A stretch of 64,000 nucleotides of DNA from Vampirovibrionales bacterium. Lineage in GTDB: Bacteria > Cyanobacteriota > Vampirovibrionia > Vampirovibrionales > JAGQHJ01. The position numbers were made by a program, and so were the translations under genes. Under the pieces are notes generated by a model. That model worked only from the letters and a program-made list of their open reading frames with translations. It made no database searches and was not told the DNA's origin. This document shows, in pieces, positions 6,981 to 52,675 of the stretch. Each line of letters begins with the position of its first letter. Position 1 is the first letter of the stretch. The stretch spans positions 18,967-82,966 of the forward strand of contig JANWIO010000166.1 in NCBI GenBank assembly GCA_025449835.1, in the 5' to 3' direction.

Positions 6981-7268
6981 TCCAATGCTTAACGCATCCT
7001 AAAATAAAATTGTGCCCAGGGTGAGTCAGTCACCTGCCAAATCTCAAATGAGTCACAACTTCTGTAGAGGTTATCGTCATTTGTTGAATTGACTTTAAAA
7101 ATTTGAAAAAAGAAGGTAACATCCCATTTTTTGGTACTCACAAAACGATTCAAAAATAATTCTTTTTACCTTTTAAGCTTAACAGGCAGCCTTGTTCAAC
7201 AAAGAAGCCCTCCTCTGATAAGAAGGGCTTCATATGAATTTAAGGATAAGCTTCGTAAACTACGCTGC

Positions 7269-7556
7269 TTACTTTACTTTGTTGCTGCTGGTTTTGGTGG
7301 TTTTGGTGGTCATCATGTTTTTAGCCAATTTGGTATGATGACTGGATTTAGCAGCCATTTTGGTGCTGTGATGATGTTTAGCAGCTATCTTATGATGATG
7401 GCTGGTATGTTTGGTTGCCATTTTATGATGGGTTGCAGCAGCATGGTGTTTTGGGGTAGCTGCTTTGTGGTGCGTTGTTGCTGATGTAGCAGCAAAAGCC
7501 CCAGCAGTGGTCAACAAGAAAAGGCTCACGATACCTAATGATAATGCTTTTTTCAT
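7269..7556 (-). CDS. Small secreted histidine-rich protein (about 17 His in a ~72-aa mature chain); putative periplasmic metal-binding protein
   Basis: Start ATG at 7556 with an AAGGAG SD 10 nt upstream. Signal peptide MKKALSLGIVSLFLLTTAGAFAA. Repeated HHK / HHH motifs. Intrinsic terminator just downstream. The overlapping plus-strand ORF 7131-7484 is its antisense shadow. Confidence 0.6.
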   Translation of the reverse strand: MKKALSLGIVSLFLLTTAGAFAATSATTHHKAATPKHHAAATHHKMATKHTSHHHKIAAKHHHSTKMAAKSSHHTKLAKNMMTTKTTKTSSNKVK

Positions 7557-7832
7557 TTTTAAAAACTCCTTTGTCAATTTAATAATGTGATTCAAATAAC
7601 TGCAACGGGTATTTTCCCCAATACCCTAATTCTAGTATTCTCCTAAAATGCTTTTGTCTTACTAACCAAAAGAGCTACTCCTTAGAGTAGTTTTTTCGTT
7701 ACCCCTCACAAACGAAACATCAGAATACATTTACAGAGACAAAAATGATATCAGAGGTCCTTTCACAGCAGTACATGACTCGATTATTCAAGAAGTTCGT
7801 ATTTTATAAAACTTAATATTCTTCAAATTCTA

Positions 7833-8456
7833 GTGTTTAAATTGGATCATTTTTTTGAGAAAATGTTATATCGCAGGTTGTTATTTATTCTGGAGATCCG
7901 TGATTTTATGAACGTTGGAATGATGCCATGTGTGGCCACGGTTCGATTTCGGGGAAAACCCACCTCCAAGCAGAGTATTCGCCTGATTGAACCCAGGGAC
8001 GGTAAGGCCATGGGGCAGGTTATTATTCAAGTGCTAAGTGAATGGCAGTGCGACTCGGTGTATTTTTCCAAACCCCAACTGCTGGATAACCTCGCTGAGG
8101 ATTACCAGAAACCTGGCGCCAAGTATTGGGTGGTAACCGACAAGGCTACCGGCAAAATACTGGGTGGCGCAGGTTACGGGCAATTGGAAGGCACCCGGGC
8201 CGAATACAAAACTTGAGAGCTGCAAAAGATGTATCTTTTGCCTGAAGCTCGGGGCAAGGGTAACGGTAAGAAGCTGATGGAGCGTATTCTCAAGGATGCC
8301 AAACAGGATGGGTATCAAACCATTTATCTCGATACCGACGTGAAGCTGACCAGCTCTATTGGACTCTATAAAAAATACGGGTTCCAACAGCTCAACACTC
8401 CCATTGGCAACACTGGACACAACACATGCGGGGTTTATATGAGCCGAAGCCTATAA
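7833..8456 (+). pseudogene. GNAT family N-acetyltransferase interrupted by an in-frame TGA at 8214-8216 (pseudogene or sequencing error); likely true start ATG at 7908
   Basis: ORFs 7833-8216 and 8229-8456 are in the same frame. The GNAT acetyl-CoA motif (ELQKMYLLPEARGKGNGKKLM) continues immediately after the stop. TGA is used as a stop elsewhere (e.g. 32641-32643). Confidence 0.6.
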
Positions 8457-14659: not shown

Positions 14660-15529
14660 GTGCCGATAGTTGTAAATACCAATATTGCATCTTTAATTGC
14701 ACAACAAAATTTATCAGTGAATACCAATAACGTTAATGGTTCACTGGAAAAATTATCCTCCGGCTATAAAATCAATCATGCCTCTGACGATCCAGCAGGA
14801 TTAAGCATCTCAGAAACACTTAATAGCCAGATTTCCGGGATCCAAACAGCTTTGCAAAACGCCCAAGAGGGAAACAGCATTTTGCAAGTTGCAGAAGGAA
14901 CTTTAAGTGTTATCGGTGATAACCTCCAACGGATTCGAGAGCTAACCGTTGAAGCTGCTAACGATACCAACAGTAGCACTCAGCGGGCAGCCCTTGCCAG
15001 TGAAATTAAGGCTCGCTTAAATGACAACCAACGCATGGTTCAAGCGGCACAATTTAATGGCATTAATCTGCTAACGGGATCAGCCGTCAGTGCTCGCCTT
15101 CAAATTGGACCCGATGCAAGCATTGCCGACAATACCATTAACATTGCCAGTGTCCTCGCCACGGCCACAGCAACAGCCATTGGTATTCTGGGAGCTGCCA
15201 CTTCCACAAAATGGGGAACTATCGGCAGCATTAACATTACCAATGGTAGCGTTGCCAGAAGCTTCTTAGGTGAGATAGATAAAGCTATTCAAGCCATCTC
15301 TTCAAGACGCACATTGATTGGTGCTTACCAAAACCAGTTAAGCAGCGCCATCTCCAATTTACAGTTGGGTTCACAGAACCTGACCTCCTCAGAATCCAAT
15401 ATCCGAGATGTGGATGTTGCTGCAGAAAGCGCTAAATTAACCCAATCTCAAATCTTACAACAGGCATCCGTTAGTATCCTGACACAGGCCAATCAAACCC
15501 CCTCAATGGTTCTTAAACTACTACAGTAA
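14660..15529 (+). CDS. fliC: Flagellin (copy 1 of 6, 289 aa, GTG start), the most divergent paralog
   Basis: Conserved flagellin D0/D1 termini (MPIVVNTNIASL... and ...LQQASVSILTQANQTP..LKLLQ). AAGGAG SD 9 nt upstream. Confidence 0.9.
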   Translation: MPIVVNTNIASLIAQQNLSVNTNNVNGSLEKLSSGYKINHASDDPAGLSISETLNSQISGIQTALQNAQEGNSILQVAEGTLSVIGDNLQRIRELTVEAANDTNSSTQRAALASEIKARLNDNQRMVQAAQFNGINLLTGSAVSARLQIGPDASIADNTINIASVLATATATAIGILGAATSTKWGTIGSINITNGSVARSFLGEIDKAIQAISSRRTLIGAYQNQLSSAISNLQLGSQNLTSSESNIRDVDVAAESAKLTQSQILQQASVSILTQANQTPSMVLKLLQ

Positions 15530-15634
15530 CCCTTACATAACCATAAGGAAAGCCCCATGAATACAACCCCCTAAGTTATACCCGCTCCCTCCCATGAACC
15601 TGGTCCATGCCCCAAATCATCACTGAACCAGACT

Positions 15635-16075
15635 CATGTGAGGACCTCCAAAGTTTTCACATGACCCCAGTATCTGCCCACATTAAACCTCAACATTAAC
15701 CCTTCGTGGATGGATACCCAACTCAATAACACCTGTAAAACGCTTCTGTGCATTAGCGTGGCGACCATCAAATTAAAAATAAAGATGCTGTCGACACCAG
15801 CTTCATGACTCAGATACCACTTTACAGGCTCAAAGAACCTCTTTCATGACTGAAAAGGATGAAAGCCTGGGCGCTAAAACGCTCCCGGGATGGGGTTCCC
15901 TACAATAAAATACCGAAACCCTTATATGTGCCTGATTCAGGGTGCCTTGGGCATCATTTTTTGAATCAGCCCCATGTGAGGATTCTTCGGACCTCTCACA
16001 TGACCCGATGTAAAACCGAGTTCGTGCCACTTGGCATGGATGTTTAAACCCAAACCGTTTGAACCGGCTTTACAT
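15635..16075 (+). repeat. Structured intergenic region with two copies of a CATGTGAGGA...CACATGACCC hairpin motif and further inverted repeats
   Basis: Copy A 15635-15667 and copy B 15973-16006 share 10-nt flanks that form 7-8 bp stems. Adjacent inverted repeats CTGATTCA/TGAATCAG (15933-15970) and GATGTAAA/TTTACATC (16007-16075). Confidence 0.5.
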
Positions 16076-16271
16076 CAAATTCATCAAGAATAAACCCCAT
16101 GTCTTATTTGGCATGAATGGATTAGAAATAAAGTTTTGTCTCTATTTCTACCCAGATCAAGCCTTTATAAGGCATTTTGAAAGAACCAACCTAACTCATA
16201 ATACACAACACGTTTGGAAAAACGCCACTTGACAAGGATGGAAAGTGAGAAAAAGCAAAAGGAGTTGAACT

Positions 16272-17114
16272 ATGCCACTCGTTATTAATACAAACGTAAA
16301 TTCATTAAATGCCCAACGGCTCTTGTCACAAAACACGATGAATCTGTCTAAAGATTTAGAGCAATTGGCCTCTGGTTATCGGATTAACCATGCCAGCGAT
16401 GATGCCGCAGGATTACAGATTTCTGAAAATTTTACTGCCCAAATCCGAGGCACTGAACAAGCCATTAACAATGCACAAGATGGCCTTAACCTCTTGTCTG
16501 TTGCAGAAGGTACCTTGAGCGTTGTGGCAAACAACCTGCAACGGATCCGGGAGCTCGCTGTGGAAGCTGCCAACGATGTGAACGGTTCAACCCAAAGATC
16601 TGCTATTAAGCAAGAAATTGATGCCCGAATCGCCGATATCAACCGAATGACCAAAGCAACACAATTTAACGGTGTCAATGTTCTTCAAAAGATCCCTAAT
16701 GTCAGCCTTAGACTACAGGTGGGTGCCAATGGTGTTGCATCACAAGACACCATCAATATCGCTTCTGCACTGGGAAGTGCAACCGCTACGGGACTTGGCC
16801 TTACAGCCACAGCCAATATGATTTCATCTAACAGTAATGCTCGGGCATTTTTGGCCAATGTAGATAGTGCTATGAATAACCTATCCAGCAGAAGAGCGGT
16901 AATCGGTTCATTCCAAAACCGATTACAAAGCGCTATTGATAACTTACAAATTGAAGATCAAAACTTCCAAGCTTCTGAATCTCAAATTAGAGACGTGAAT
17001 GTGGCCAAAGTTACGGCCGATCTTTCTAAAAACCAGATTTTACAACAAGCCTCTGTCAGCATCTTGGCGCAAGCAAATCAATTGCCGGCTCTGGCACTTA
17101 AATTAATCGGGTAA
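16272..17114 (+). CDS. fliC: Flagellin (copy 2 of 6, 280 aa)
   Basis: Flagellin N- and C-terminal helices. About 93% aa identity to copy 3 with many synonymous nucleotide differences. Confidence 0.9.
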   Translation: MPLVINTNVNSLNAQRLLSQNTMNLSKDLEQLASGYRINHASDDAAGLQISENFTAQIRGTEQAINNAQDGLNLLSVAEGTLSVVANNLQRIRELAVEAANDVNGSTQRSAIKQEIDARIADINRMTKATQFNGVNVLQKIPNVSLRLQVGANGVASQDTINIASALGSATATGLGLTATANMISSNSNARAFLANVDSAMNNLSSRRAVIGSFQNRLQSAIDNLQIEDQNFQASESQIRDVNVAKVTADLSKNQILQQASVSILAQANQLPALALKLIG

Positions 17115-17137
17115 GCCTGTTGTTTACCCATTTTTTA
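17109..17137 (+). terminator. Probable intrinsic terminator of flagellin 2
   Basis: GGGTAA-gcctgttgt-TTACCC followed by ATTTTTT; overlaps the stop codon. Confidence 0.55.
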
Positions 17138-17284
17138 TACCCAATCACTTACATAACTTAGAAAGGAGAAACAGATAAGACCTAAAATCACCTCATTTAC
17201 ATTACAGTACGTTACTTGTGTTTAACAAAAATACCTCATTATTAACAAGGATGGAAATAATAAGAAAGCAAAAGGAGTTGTACT

Positions 17285-18127
17285 ATGCCACTCGTTATTA
17301 ATACCAATGTCAATTCATTAAACGCTCAGCGACTCTTGTCGCAAAACACCATGAATCTCTCCAAAGACCTAGAGCAATTAGCCTCTGGTTATCGTATTAA
17401 CCATGCCGGTGATGACGCCGCAGGTCTCCAGATTTCTGAAAATTTTACTGCCCAAATCAAAGGGACAGAGCAAGCCATTAACAACGCACAGGATGGCCTT
17501 AACCTCTTGTCTGTTGCTGAAGGCACCCTAAGTGTTGTTCAGGATAACCTCCAGCGGATCCGCGAGCTAACTGTACAAGCGGCTAACGATGTTAACGGCT
17601 CCTCTCAAAGAACCGCTATTAAGCAAGAAATTGATGCCCGAATCGCCGACATCAACCGAATGACCAAAGCCACACAGTTTAACGGTGTCAATATTCTTAA
17701 AAGCATTGCAAATGTGAGTTTTCGCCTGCAAGTTGGTGCCAATGGTGTTGCATCCCAGGATACCATCAACATTGCATCAGCCTTGGGTAGTGCAACAGCC
17801 ACGGGGCTTGGATTAAAGGCAACGACCAATATGATTTCATCCAACAGCAATGCCCGTGCTTTTTTAGCCAATGTGGATAGTGCCATGAATAACCTATCCA
17901 GCAGAAGAGCGGTTATCGGTTCATTCCAAAACCGACTGCAAAGTGCCGTGAGTAACTTACAAATTGCAGATCAAAACTTCCAGGCCTCTGAATCTCAGAT
18001 CAGAGACGTTAATGTGGCCAAAGTTACTGCCGATCTCTCTAAAAACCAGATTCTGCAACAAGCTTCTGTCAGTATCTTGGCACAAGCAAACCAATTGCCG
18101 GCTTTGGCACTCAAACTTATCGGCTAA
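17285..18127 (+). CDS. fliC: Flagellin (copy 3 of 6, 280 aa)
   Basis: Flagellin termini. Leader shares the AAGGATGGAAA...AAGGAG motif with copy 2. Confidence 0.9.
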   Translation: MPLVINTNVNSLNAQRLLSQNTMNLSKDLEQLASGYRINHAGDDAAGLQISENFTAQIKGTEQAINNAQDGLNLLSVAEGTLSVVQDNLQRIRELTVQAANDVNGSSQRTAIKQEIDARIADINRMTKATQFNGVNILKSIANVSFRLQVGANGVASQDTINIASALGSATATGLGLKATTNMISSNSNARAFLANVDSAMNNLSSRRAVIGSFQNRLQSAVSNLQIADQNFQASESQIRDVNVAKVTADLSKNQILQQASVSILAQANQLPALALKLIG

Positions 18128-18317
18128 TTATCGAGCTCATTTGGCTTAAAACGCCTGTCGATAAATTTATTCTCACCTCATCAATGAGAAAAAAACAACA
18201 AAGGAGAATCTCCCTAATGACTTAAAACAATAATCCATCTGATTGAAACCTCTCACGTGTGGTGCAATCAGCCACTTACTTAAATTTGAATCAGGAAATA
18301 ACAGTAGGAGAAAAACT

Positions 18318-19157
18318 ATGCCACTGGTTATTAATACGAATACTAACTCATTAAACGCACAGCGGCTCTTGTCACAAAACACCATGAATCTCTCCAAAGA
18401 CTTAGAGCAGTTGGCCTCCGGTTATCGAATCAATCACGCATCGGACGACGCGGCAGGGCTACAAATCTCCCAGAATTTGCAGTCTCAATACCGTGGTATT
18501 GAGCAGGCCGTTCGAAACTCACAAGATGGACTTAACCTCTTGTCTGTTGCTGAAGGCACCTTGAGTGTTGTTCAAGATAACCTCCAGCGGATACGAGAAC
18601 TCGCTGTACAAGCAGCCAACGATGTTAACGGTACATCTCAAAGAACCGCTATTAAACAAGAGATAGATGCTCGAATTGCTGACATTAATCGAATGACCAA
18701 AGCCACGCAATTTAACGGTGTTAATATCCTTCAAAGCATCAAAGGCAGCTTCAATCTTGAAGTGGGTGCCAATGGTGCAGCATCCACAAATACCATTAAC
18801 ATTGCTTCAGCACTAGGTAGTGCAACAGCCACAGGGCTTGGACTAAAGGCAACCACCAATATGATTGCCGCCAACAGTAATGCTAGAGCCTTTTTAGGAA
18901 ATGTTGATTCAGCCATTGCAAATGTGTCAACAAGACGTGCAACCATTGGTTCATTCCAAAACCGGCTGCAAAGTGCTATTGCAAACTTACAAATTGCAGA
19001 TCAAAACTTCCAAGCTTCTGCGTCTCAAATTAGAGATGTGAATGTGGCTGCAGTCACTGCGGATCTGTCTCGAAATCAGATTCTGCAGCAGGCTTCCGTC
19101 AGCATTCTGTCTCAAGCAAATCAACTACCGGCCTTAGCACTCAAACTTATCGGATAA
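18318..19157 (+). CDS. fliC: Flagellin (copy 4 of 6, 279 aa); start corrected to ATG 18318
   Basis: MPLVINTN start preceded by a TAGGAG SD. The extra 25 codons of track ORF 18243 lack an RBS and break the paralog alignment. Confidence 0.9.
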   Translation: MPLVINTNTNSLNAQRLLSQNTMNLSKDLEQLASGYRINHASDDAAGLQISQNLQSQYRGIEQAVRNSQDGLNLLSVAEGTLSVVQDNLQRIRELAVQAANDVNGTSQRTAIKQEIDARIADINRMTKATQFNGVNILQSIKGSFNLEVGANGAASTNTINIASALGSATATGLGLKATTNMIAANSNARAFLGNVDSAIANVSTRRATIGSFQNRLQSAIANLQIADQNFQASASQIRDVNVAAVTADLSRNQILQQASVSILSQANQLPALALKLIG

Positions 19158-19315
19158 AAATATACACAAACAATCTTTAATAACAAAATAACCTGAAAGG
19201 AGGCTGATTATCCCGGAAAAATAGAACTCTTAGATTATCTAAATCCACACTTTACAAAACACAAACACTTTTTTTTGGAAGGAAAAGTGAAAAAACAACA
19301 TAAAGGAGTTAAATT

Positions 19316-20155
19316 ATGCCACTTGTTATTAATACAAACGTAAACTCGTTAAATGCACAGCGGCTCTTGTCACAAAACACCATGAATCTCTCCAAAGACT
19401 TAGAGCAGTTGGCCTCCGGTTATCGAATCAACCACGCATCTGACGACGCAGCCGGGCTACAAATCTCCCAGAATCTGCAGTCTCAATACCGTGGTGTCGA
19501 GCAGGCCGTTCGAAACTCACAAGACGGGTTAAACCTCTTGTCTGTTGCTGAAGGTACCCTGAGTGTCGTTCAAGATAACCTCCAGCGGATCAGAGAGCTT
19601 GCTGTACAGGCGGCCAACGATGTGAACGGTACATCTCAAAGAACTGCTATTAAGCAAGAGATGGATGCCCGGATTGCTGACATCAACCGAATGACCAAAG
19701 CAACGCAATTTAACGGTGTTAATATCCTTCAAAGCATCAAAGGAAGCTTTAACATTCAAGTTGGTGCCAATGGTGCAGCATCCACAAACTCCATTAACAT
19801 TGCGTCTGCACTGGGTAGCGCAACAGCCACAGGCCTTGGCTTAAAGGCAACCGCAAATATGATTGCCGCCAACAGTAATGCCAGATCCTTTTTATCCAAT
19901 ATCGATACAGCCATTGCAAACGTCTCAACAAGACGTGCAACCATTGGTTCGTTTCAAAACCGGCTACAAAGTGCTATTGCAAACCTACAAATTGCTGACC
20001 AAAACTACCAAGCTTCTGCATCTCAAATTCGAGATGTGAACGTGGCTTCAGTCACTGCGGATCTGTCTCGAAACCAGATTCTGCAGCAGGCTTCCGTCAG
20101 CATTCTGTCTCAAGCAAATCAACTACCGGCCTTAGCACTCAAACTCATTGGTTAA
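19316..20155 (+). CDS. fliC: Flagellin (copy 5 of 6, 279 aa)
   Basis: Near-identical to copy 4, including a ~78-nt identical tract near the 5' end. Confidence 0.9.
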   Translation: MPLVINTNVNSLNAQRLLSQNTMNLSKDLEQLASGYRINHASDDAAGLQISQNLQSQYRGVEQAVRNSQDGLNLLSVAEGTLSVVQDNLQRIRELAVQAANDVNGTSQRTAIKQEMDARIADINRMTKATQFNGVNILQSIKGSFNIQVGANGAASTNSINIASALGSATATGLGLKATANMIAANSNARSFLSNIDTAIANVSTRRATIGSFQNRLQSAIANLQIADQNYQASASQIRDVNVASVTADLSRNQILQQASVSILSQANQLPALALKLIG

Positions 20156-20180
20156 TCATCTATAACCAGTGCTTAAGCCT

Positions 20181-20212
20181 GCAGGAGACCCTTTTGGGGT
20201 CTCCTGTTTTTT
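20181..20212 (+). terminator. Strong rho-independent terminator after flagellin 5
   Basis: CAGGAGACCC-tttt-GGGGTCTCCTG followed by TTTTTT. Confidence 0.85.
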
Positions 20213-20501
20213 CACGCATTTCCATCTTCCTTCTTTACAACCCTTTGTTTTTAAAATTTAAACATAGATTGTAACAGATTGTTTCAATTTCCACTGAATG
20301 ATTTATGTTTCCGATGACCCTGTCGAAATCACATCAGGGACACCTCAAAAATGTTCCCACCCCAAGGGCACATCCCTGTAAAAGCACCTACCATAGAATT
20401 ATATGATGCAGCTTTAGGCTAACTCGGCTGGGTTAGAATGGCTTTTGCAGTGCGTTTCCTTAGGGTTCATGGATGAAATAATATTGTAAGGAGACAATAC
20501 T

Positions 20502-21341
20502 ATGTCACTAGTCGTGAATACAAACATTTCTTCTTTGAACGCTCAAAGAAACCTTGCTAATAACACAATGAGCCTTAACCGATCGTTAGAGCGGTTATCC
20601 TCCGGTTTACAGATTAACCATGCTTCTGATAACGCTGCAGGGTTACAAATTTCTCAAAATTTGCAAGCCCAAGTTAATGGTGTCAACCAAGCAGTTTCCA
20701 ATGCACAGGATGGCAACAATCTTCTGTCTGTTGCTGAGGGTACCTTGAGTGTTGTTCAAGATAACCTCCAACGGATTCGGGAATTGACTGTGCAAGCCGC
20801 CAACGATGTAAACGGTACATCTCAAAGAACTGCTATTAAGCAAGAGATCGATTCCCGGATTGCTGACATCAACCGAATGACCAAAGCGACCCAATTTAAT
20901 GGTATCAATATCCTTCAAAGCATCAAAGGAAGCTTTAACATTCAAGTTGGTGCCAATGGTGCAGCATCCACAAACTCCATTAACATTGCTTCAGCACTGG
21001 GTAGCGCAACAGCCACGGGGCTTGGGTTAAAAGCAACCACCAATATGGTTGCTGCAAATAGTAATGCTAGGGCCTTTTTGGCCAATGTGGATACGGCCAT
21101 TTCAGCTGTCTCAACCCGAAGAGCAACGATCGGTTCTTATCAAAACCGGTTACAAAGTGCTATCAGTAACTTACAGATTACGTCTCAAAATTTCGCTGCT
21201 TCTGAATCTCAAATCAGAGACGTGAATGTCGCTTCAGAAACGGCAAACTTAACCCGTTCTCAAATTCTGCAGCAAGCTTCTGTAAGCATCTTGGCACAAG
21301 CAAACCAATCATCAGCTCTGGCACTCAAACTCATCGGTTAG
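20502..21341 (+). CDS. fliC: Flagellin (copy 6 of 6, 279 aa), mosaic: divergent N-terminus, central block identical to copy 5
   Basis: MSLVVNTNISSLNAQR... N-terminus. A ~63-nt block (20927-20989) is identical to 19741-19803 of copy 5. Confidence 0.9.
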   Translation: MSLVVNTNISSLNAQRNLANNTMSLNRSLERLSSGLQINHASDNAAGLQISQNLQAQVNGVNQAVSNAQDGNNLLSVAEGTLSVVQDNLQRIRELTVQAANDVNGTSQRTAIKQEIDSRIADINRMTKATQFNGINILQSIKGSFNIQVGANGAASTNSINIASALGSATATGLGLKATTNMVAANSNARAFLANVDTAISAVSTRRATIGSYQNRLQSAISNLQITSQNFAASESQIRDVNVASETANLTRSQILQQASVSILAQANQSSALALKLIG

Positions 21342-52072: not shown

Positions 52073-52675
52073 CTAATTTTCGATCATAAATCGTAACGGT
52101 TCCGAGGCTGGAATTTTGGTTTCAGGTTGATTTTGCTTGCCGCAAAGAAAAAACGCTGCCTGAATTTGATATTCTCCCGGTTTCCAAAAAAGGACAGGGC
52201 TGGGTACCCGGTTTTTCAGATTAAAGATCACGCGATAATTTTGGCCTGGTGATAACGTGACATTTTTGATCGTAGATATCTCTTTCCGACTCAGTTGTAC
52301 CACCTCTGGCGGAATCTTTAGCTTGCCAGCCCCACCCCGATAGACTTCAACGCCAAAGTCTAACTCCGGCTGCTCACGGTTCAAGCATAGCGTCACAGGT
52401 TGTTGAGCCGTAAAATTTGCTTCAATGGGAATCTCCGCATTAGGGCCAAAAATATCCTGGGTAGTCGTGAGGGTAAACGTCACTGGCGCAGCGGGTTGTG
52501 TCGAATCTGTTGACTGAGGGGGCGTTGTCTGAGGCGAGCTTGAGGAAGAAGAGGCGGGCGGGGTCGAAATATTATTTTGCGCATTGGCCAATAAAGCACC
52601 CGATGAGACAATAGAAAGTATGATCAGCCCATAAGTAAAAGATTGAATTTTCATAATGCCCACTCCCGATATCAC
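52073..52675 (-). CDS. Secreted hypothetical protein with signal peptide and Ser/Pro/Thr-rich linker
   Basis: N-terminal hydrophobic signal (IILSIVSSGALLANA) followed by a low-complexity PST region. Confidence 0.45.
   Translation of the reverse strand: MISGVGIMKIQSFTYGLIILSIVSSGALLANAQNNISTPPASSSSSSPQTTPPQSTDSTQPAAPVTFTLTTTQDIFGPNAEIPIEANFTAQQPVTLCLNREQPELDFGVEVYRGGAGKLKIPPEVVQLSRKEISTIKNVTLSPGQNYRVIFNLKNRVPSPVLFWKPGEYQIQAAFFLCGKQNQPETKIPASEPLRFMIEN

Follow-up and report, generated by a model that had tools for sequence, protein, structure and literature searches.

The stretch of Vampirovibrionales DNA analysed here (the window, 64,000 nucleotides) carries on its minus strand a short open reading frame (ORF) for a histidine-rich precursor, MKKALSLGIVSLFLLTTAGAFAATSATTHHKAATPKHHAAATHHKMATKHTSHHHKIAAKHHHSTKMAAKSSHHTKLAKNMMTTKTTKTSSNKVK, of 95 amino acids followed by a TAA stop codon; with the predicted cleavage marked by a slash, the precursor reads MKKALSLGIVSLFLLTTAGAFA/ATSATTHHKAATPKHHAAATHHKMATKHTSHHHKIAAKHHHSTKMAAKSSHHTKLAKNMMTTKTTKTSSNKVK. 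Upstream of this ORF, across an intergenic region, lie divergent genes for a GNAT acetyltransferase, wecB, a Na/Ca exchanger, an aldolase and a UDP-glucose dehydrogenase. Downstream and on the same strand, past an intrinsic terminator and about 220 nt, lie genes for a sensor-less histidine kinase, a REC protein, an HDOD protein and a REC-HD-GYP phosphodiesterase (6980 to 2679). The positions of the features discussed below are collected in Table 1.

In terms of host, the RecN protein encoded in the window is 35-41% identical to its named relatives from Vampirovibrio, Vampirovibrionales and Gastranaerophilales, and 59-70% identical to relatives from metagenomes. The window also carries LpxA, FabZ, many c-di-GMP signalling genes and six tandem flagellin paralogues of about 280-304 amino acids (14660-21341, plus strand). 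The presence of LpxA and FabZ together with the flagellins points to a diderm, LPS-bearing, motile, Vampirovibrionia-like bacterium, and "periplasm" is thus a valid compartment in which to think of an exported protein. The divergent GNAT gene (7908-8456, plus strand) is broken by an in-frame TGA at 8214-8216 (AEYKT-stop-ELQKMYLLPEARGKG), which represents a pseudogene, a sequencing error, or a site of read-through or recoding. The alternative genetic code that this TGA brings to mind was rejected, as TGA serves as the stop codon of 9 of the 48 long ORFs.

Table 1. Features of the histidine-rich locus and their positions in the window
Feature	Positions	Strand	Description
Histidine-rich ORF (CDS)	7269-7556	minus	95-aa precursor; ATG at 7556, TAA at 7271-7269
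Shine-Dalgarno sequence AAGGAG	7566-7571	minus	9 nt 5' of the ATG at 7556
Predicted Sec (SPase I) signal peptide	7491-7556	minus	Residues 1-22, MKK / ALSLGIVSLFLL / TTAGAFA; cleavage after AFA
Predicted mature chain	7272-7490	minus	About 73 aa; seven His clusters, then Thr/Lys/Ser tail NMMTTKTTKTSSNKVK
Intrinsic terminator	7194-7231	minus	12-bp stem 7231-7220 / 7215-7204, loop 7219-7216, tail UUUGUUGAAC at 7203-7194
Putative leader/promoter region	7557-7832	minus	Divergent intergenic; palindrome and A-run/hairpin/T-run
Antisense shadow ORF	7131-7484	plus	117 aa; TTG start, no Shine-Dalgarno sequence

The reading frame and its flanking signals

The first-pass annotation of this DNA had proposed a separate small gene for an exported His-rich protein, and the Shine-Dalgarno (SD) sequence, the features of the signal peptide, the coding frame and the terminator all agree with that proposal. 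The SD that the gene was said to possess is indeed present as AAGGAG (Table 1); it is strong and optimally spaced, which counts in favour of a real gene. The full AAGGAG is found at about 7 of 40 long ORFs of the window, and in its extended form, AAAGGAGTT, the SD is shared with three of the six flagellin genes (16272, 17285 and 19316).

The coding potential of the locus was scored by codon log-odds, the training set being 36 long ORFs of the window. The frame of the His-rich ORF scores +5.2 and is the sole positive one of the six, the other five ranging from -44 to -90. In comparison, 95-codon stretches of typical genes score 30 +/- 9; the low value of the His-rich ORF is attributed to the odd amino-acid make-up of its product and is thus expected, yet it is no proof of coding. 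The choice among synonymous codons for His, Lys and Thr matches that of the window genes (CAT 73% in both; AAA 88% in the ORF and 75% in the genes; ACC 75% and 47%) and likewise counts for a real gene. At the DNA level the ORF contains one tandem repeat only, 9 bp in 2.4 copies at 7289-7310, which encodes the TTKTTKT tail; the His clusters are repeats of the protein and no DNA microsatellite. The overlapping ORF on the opposite strand had been called an artefact and can be set aside as such: in coding score it falls to -44 (the His-rich frame has +5), its TTG start has no SD, and it runs through the terminator hairpin.

This hairpin begins 38 nt past the stop codon of the His-rich ORF and has a free energy of -19.8 kcal/mol (z = -5.0), none of 200 shuffled sequences being as stable; its U-tract exists for transcription of the minus strand only. 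The terminator had been described as perfect. A strong minus-strand hairpin does lie downstream of the gene, but two of its 12 base pairs are G-U pairs and the U-tract that follows the stem with its 4-nt loop is interrupted (UUUGUUG), so that the adjective does not hold. On the upstream side, a single sigma-70-like site is present on the minus strand at 7810-7783 (score 9/12); no convincing promoter was found upstream of the His-rich ORF, nor any sigma-28 or sigma-54 promoter motif, and an Rfam scan of the region for a metal riboswitch or other leader RNA returned no family matches. Two further elements mark this region, namely a perfect 7-6-7 palindrome at 7607-7626 (GGGTATT-N6-AATACCC), a candidate operator or RNA hairpin, and at 7669-7696 an A-run/hairpin/T-run resembling a bidirectional terminator or attenuator. 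Taken as a whole, 7269-7556 on the minus strand is very probably a genuine small gene whose product is strongly cationic and, by prediction, disordered and exported. As read from its sequence signals, this genuine-looking gene is probably monocistronic and separately expressed.

The predicted signal peptide and the mature chain

The canonical signal peptide announced by the first-pass annotation is predicted here as well. The N-terminus of the precursor is laid out as an n-region (MKK), an h-region of 12 residues and a c-region rich in small residues with A-F-A at -3/-1, and these regions and the AFA site pass a crude rule-based test. When window sequence is shuffled, 0.7% of its ORFs (8 of 1117) pass as well; in the real window, the other ORFs accepted by these rules are mostly long ones. 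As the precursor contains no Cys, the product is no lipoprotein. AlphaFold2 models residues 5-24 of the precursor as its sole helix. From features such as these we infer the export of the protein, its cleavage site, the location of the product and the whole of its function. Elsewhere in the window, the ORF at 52073-52675 (minus strand, ATG at 52654) combines a signal-peptide-like N-terminus with a Ser/Pro/Thr-rich low-complexity stretch, ANAQNNISTPPASSSSSSPQTTP, and may encode a second secreted low-complexity protein.

The mature chain is composed of 15 His (21%), 14 Lys (19%), 14 Thr (19%), 13 Ala (18%), seven Ser, four Met, two Asn, one Pro and a single Ile, Leu and Val; it is devoid of Asp, Glu, Cys, Arg, Gln, Gly and aromatic residues. 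His accounts for 2.4% of the residues in the long ORFs of the window. The length given earlier (about 72 residues) agrees with the 72-73 found, and the quasi-repeats in which HH and HHH are combined with Thr and Lys are present as described (THHK, SHHHK, KHHHS and SHHTK); the number of His residues, put at about 17, has to be corrected to 15. These residues are grouped in seven clusters (four HH, two HHH and one single H) that stand 3-12 residues apart and nearly always adjoin a Lys, and the final 20 residues of the chain are free of His and rich in Thr, Lys and Ser. The calculated pI is 11.1 and the calculated net charge rises from about +14 at pH 7.5 to +21 at pH 6 and about +29 at pH 4.5. 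The helical hydrophobic moment does not exceed 0.28 and there is thus no signature of an amphipathic helix. AlphaFold2, run on the single sequence, models the mature chain as coil (pLDDT 53-57), and the chain is predicted to be intrinsically disordered.

Homology searches and genomic setting

The His-rich mini-protein is an orphan without detectable relatives. Pfam gave only a meaningless match to AIF_C (E = 0.35), PHROGs gave matches no better than E = 0.16, and neither the PDB sequences nor, by tblastn, the plasmids gave any match. The sole family signal in NCBIfam is CopL (NF033807), which reaches 15.7 bits against a cutoff of 40 over residues 9-73 (E = 0.018); at such a score the match, which covers the signal peptide and the His-rich segment, is judged to be driven by composition. 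No homologue was found by a word/HMMER search of 5.8 billion clustered proteins, by running HMMER without filters on 1.84 billion representatives, or by a scan of metagenome contigs with the protein itself. The exact sequences of the sense and antisense ORFs, in all start variants, are absent from the protein collection, but this absence is uninformative: of the other proteins of that contig, the collection contains the kinase and RecN but neither wecB nor the response regulator.

The surroundings of the gene were compared with 80 genome loci around homologues of the kinase and 80 metagenome loci around homologues of wecB, to which nine contigs around the closest kinase homologues were added; the closest relative of the kinase is 66% identical. 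No syntenic counterpart was found in the 170 loci compared. None of the kinase and wecB loci carries a His-rich ORF with a signal peptide, the filter having been run on those collected earlier. The gene 5' of the kinase encodes an HDOD protein in the later contigs and an H-NOX protein or a response regulator in the earlier ones. The search for homologues with HHK repeats in relatives, which had been suggested as a check, thus yielded none, either in the sequence collections or in the 170 loci.

Among the genes scanned (15 to about 32600), there is no metal transporter, oxidase, metallochaperone, urease, hydrogenase or metal regulator, and none of the scanned genes on either side encodes a P-type ATPase, an RND pump, a multicopper oxidase or a metal ABC importer. 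Operons of the kinase/REC/HDOD/REC-HD-GYP type are headed by H-NOX in Verrucomicrobiota, "Deltaproteobacteria" and other MAGs, and the window carries no H-NOX gene anywhere. The His-rich ORF was considered as a replacement for H-NOX and rejected in this role: a Melainabacteria-like relative is also devoid of H-NOX, and the kinase, for which Pfam finds no sensor or membrane domain, looks cytoplasmic, which makes a functional link unlikely.

Possible functions of the mature chain

The best explanation of these features, drawn by analogy and held at a probability of about 0.38, is that the gene encodes an Asr-like, proton-titrated polycationic protectant of the cell envelope. Among well-studied bacterial proteins, E. 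coli Asr alone shares the physico-chemical profile of the chain. Asr, the acid-shock protein of Enterobacteria, has been described as a periplasmic chaperone that is intrinsically disordered and acts according to its net charge; it supports the integrity of the outer membrane and is massively induced at pH 4.4 (PMC10746267). Like the His-rich protein, Asr of Escherichia coli (b1597, PF06392) is made as a precursor of about 100 amino acids with a Sec signal peptide and a disordered chain; past the signal peptide it is rich in Ala, Lys, Thr, Gln, Pro and His, with a pI of 10.5 and a charge of +14 at pH 7.5 and +23 at pH 4.5. One trait of Asr, namely a Sec signal peptide followed by a basic, disordered mature chain rich in Lys, Ala, Thr and His, is by prediction present here. 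Both chains begin with a Thr/Ala-rich N-terminus, display T-HHK and KHH motifs (THHK and KKHHK in E. coli Asr) and have a pI above 10, and both genes stand alone with a terminator of their own. A filter for a signal peptide and at least 10% His, applied to the 170 loci and the window, retained four ORFs, of which the genuine exported His-rich ones are this ORF and E. coli asr.

In an Asr-like mechanism, Sec would export the precursor, and cleavage after AFA (residue 22) would free a polycation of about 73 residues, intrinsically disordered, into the periplasm or envelope. There, His pairs and triplets that alternate with Lys on an Ala/Thr/Ser background, with no acidic residue, would confer a large and tunable positive charge, the 15 imidazoles lifting the calculated value of about +14 at neutral pH to about +29 by pH 4.5. 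Upon acidification, this gain of charge would alter the binding of the chain to anionic envelope components and to client proteins, and the protein would act, like E. coli Asr, as a pH-titratable disordered periplasmic protectant or chaperone. The Lys-flanked His clusters and the lack of acidic residues argue for selection for a large positive charge that about doubles upon imidazole protonation within the physiological range of acidity, and against a classical set of metal ligands.

The resemblance to Asr lies in composition alone and may reflect convergence or coincidence. The Pfam model of Asr (PF06392) does not match the His-rich precursor even at E <= 10, whereas the E. coli Asr used as control reaches 47.8 bits (gathering threshold 24.9), and BLASTP of the precursor against E. 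coli Asr gives E = 6.4. Unlike Asr, the His-rich chain has no Gln/Pro-rich repeats and no Glu, it comes from a different phylum, and its His residues are more abundant (21% versus 10%) and more contiguous, with HHH triplets, a difference that favours metal chelation. That a lineage-restricted, possibly de novo gene has converged on the solution of Asr, with a charge switched by protons or transition metals, is an unlikely version of events. By analogy, the protein would be of the Asr/SilE-type kind of disordered, periplasmic, His-rich proteins, and a member of none of the families tested.

The HH/HHH clusters are expected to bind Ni, Zn or Cu, incidentally or physiologically, if the protein is Asr-like and equally if it is a metal buffer. 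As such binding is chemically expected, the two readings are non-exclusive, and metal binding cannot discriminate between them since any peptide with HH/HHH clusters sticks to an IMAC resin. A periplasmic metal buffer, sponge or metallochaperone, which would use its clusters to chelate incoming Ni(II), Zn(II), Cu(II) or Co(II) and thereby protect the cell or supply an importer, is a possible function, although a somewhat unlikely one. The high share of His (21%) in contiguous pairs and triplets, the four Met of the mature chain, including one in an HxxM motif, and the sub-threshold match to CopL (E = 0.018) speak for it. Zn, Cu and Ni also bind to other peptides that are cationic and His-rich, histatins among them. 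The His-rich loops of ZnuA and RcnA, by comparison, mix His with acidic residues. The predicted export and disorder of the chain recall apo-SilE (PMC5008109), but its 14 Lys with no Asp, Glu or Cys make it a +14 chain that repels cations, unlike Hpn and SilE/PcoE, in which His is accompanied by acidic residues, Met or Cys as ligands (PMC5008109, PMC4671568). The scanned genes include no metal-homeostasis genes and no metal riboswitch could be recognised, which also weighs against such a function.

Hpn, to which the protein had been likened, is similarly small, of low complexity and very His-rich. However, about 47% of Hpn is His, its other residues including Glu, Gly, Cys and Gln; its net charge at neutral pH is negative, and it is not known to carry a signal peptide. 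The His-rich ORF, in comparison, has a signal peptide, 21% His and no Cys, Glu or Gln. Given its charge of +14, its lack of acidic residues and the absence of sequence similarity, the likeness to Hpn is not supported. Hpn and Hpn-2 are cytoplasmic and transfer nickel to urease and hydrogenase, Hpn-2 having a Gln-rich C-terminus besides its His-rich part (PMC4671568); no genes for the maturation of urease or [NiFe]-hydrogenase are found among the window genes scanned. SilE and PcoE, which possess ten conserved His and ten to fifteen Met in spaced motifs (PMC5008109), resemble the predicted product in being small, exported and intrinsically disordered, with many His and some Met; by this analogy the His-rich chain would plausibly bind several metal ions. 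Their motifs MxxHxxxxxHxxM and HxxMxxxHxxM (PMC5008109) nonetheless occur zero times in the chain when searched as regular expressions, the HxxM being a single one. While SilE/PcoE are encoded in metal-resistance operons and have spaced His residues, the His-rich gene has clustered His, a strongly polycationic product and no neighbours of the sil/pco/cus type; unlike CopL, it has no cop genes nearby. Of the initial interpretation, the secreted His-rich gene stands; the periplasmic Zn/Cu/Ni chaperone is a possible reading that draws no independent support from the SilE motifs, which are absent, from CopL, which is below its cutoff, or from the neighbouring genes scanned, which include none for metals.

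An exported polycation of another sort, such as a histatin-like peptide for antimicrobial action or predation, an adhesin or matrix component with affinity for anionic polymers, or a binder of heme or porphyrin like HRP2 of Plasmodium, is by these analogies improbable. Its charge of +14 and its His/Lys/Ala make-up would suit such roles, and by RecN the predatory genus Vampirovibrio is among the closest named relatives. For heme binding in particular, KHHAAATHHK recalls the AHH-type repeats of HRP2, and the group to which the adjoining kinase belongs usually partners a heme H-NOX sensor; the kinase, however, looks cytoplasmic by Pfam, so that a periplasmic partner is implausible. The low helical moment (at most 0.28) gives no signal of an amphipathic helix, and the nearby genes include neither a bacteriocin-type leader nor an immunity gene or dedicated exporter. 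Histatins are secreted, cationic, disordered and rich in His and Lys, but they are eukaryotic, much shorter, and carry ATCUN and HEXXH motifs, both of which are absent from the His-rich chain.

It is similarly improbable that the locus makes no functional protein, being either a chance or very young (de novo) ORF or a translated His/Thr leader that would attenuate read-through into the kinase operon. The failure of every search to find a homologue, the absence of the exact sequence from the collection and the low coding score (+5) would fit a chance ORF, and the equally long antisense ORF shows that a sequence of this composition stays open easily. Yet an SD, a signal peptide, a TAA and a strand-specific terminator are jointly unlikely by chance, and absence from the collection says nothing when other proteins of the same contig are also missing. 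As to a leader, the Rfam model Thr_leader (RF00506) matches 7198-7330 on the minus strand with 20.2 bits (E = 0.32), against a gathering threshold of 55; the match is judged to be coincidental, a Thr-codon-rich ORF end being followed here by a terminator. The attenuator was rejected on further counts as well, since the ORF has 95 codons with a signal peptide, the fold contains no antiterminator pairing, and the downstream genes are signalling genes and not genes for His or Thr biosynthesis.

Lineage-specific, low-complexity secreted mini-proteins are common, and should this one turn out to be a metal-sticky orphan and nothing else, it would be of little import beyond annotation; small, low-complexity secreted ORFs are easily missed or placed on the wrong strand by gene callers. 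If instead the protein is of the Asr-like kind, it would offer a compact natural model of how His/Lys patterning sets pH and metal switching, having 15 His and 14 Lys in a chain of about 73 residues. Provided that it is expressed and titratable by protons or metals, charge-regulated disordered periplasmic protectants would not be confined to enterobacteria. The principle embodied by Asr would then be recurrent without shared ancestry, having been independently invented a second time in a non-photosynthetic relative of cyanobacteria that belongs to a barely studied phylum.
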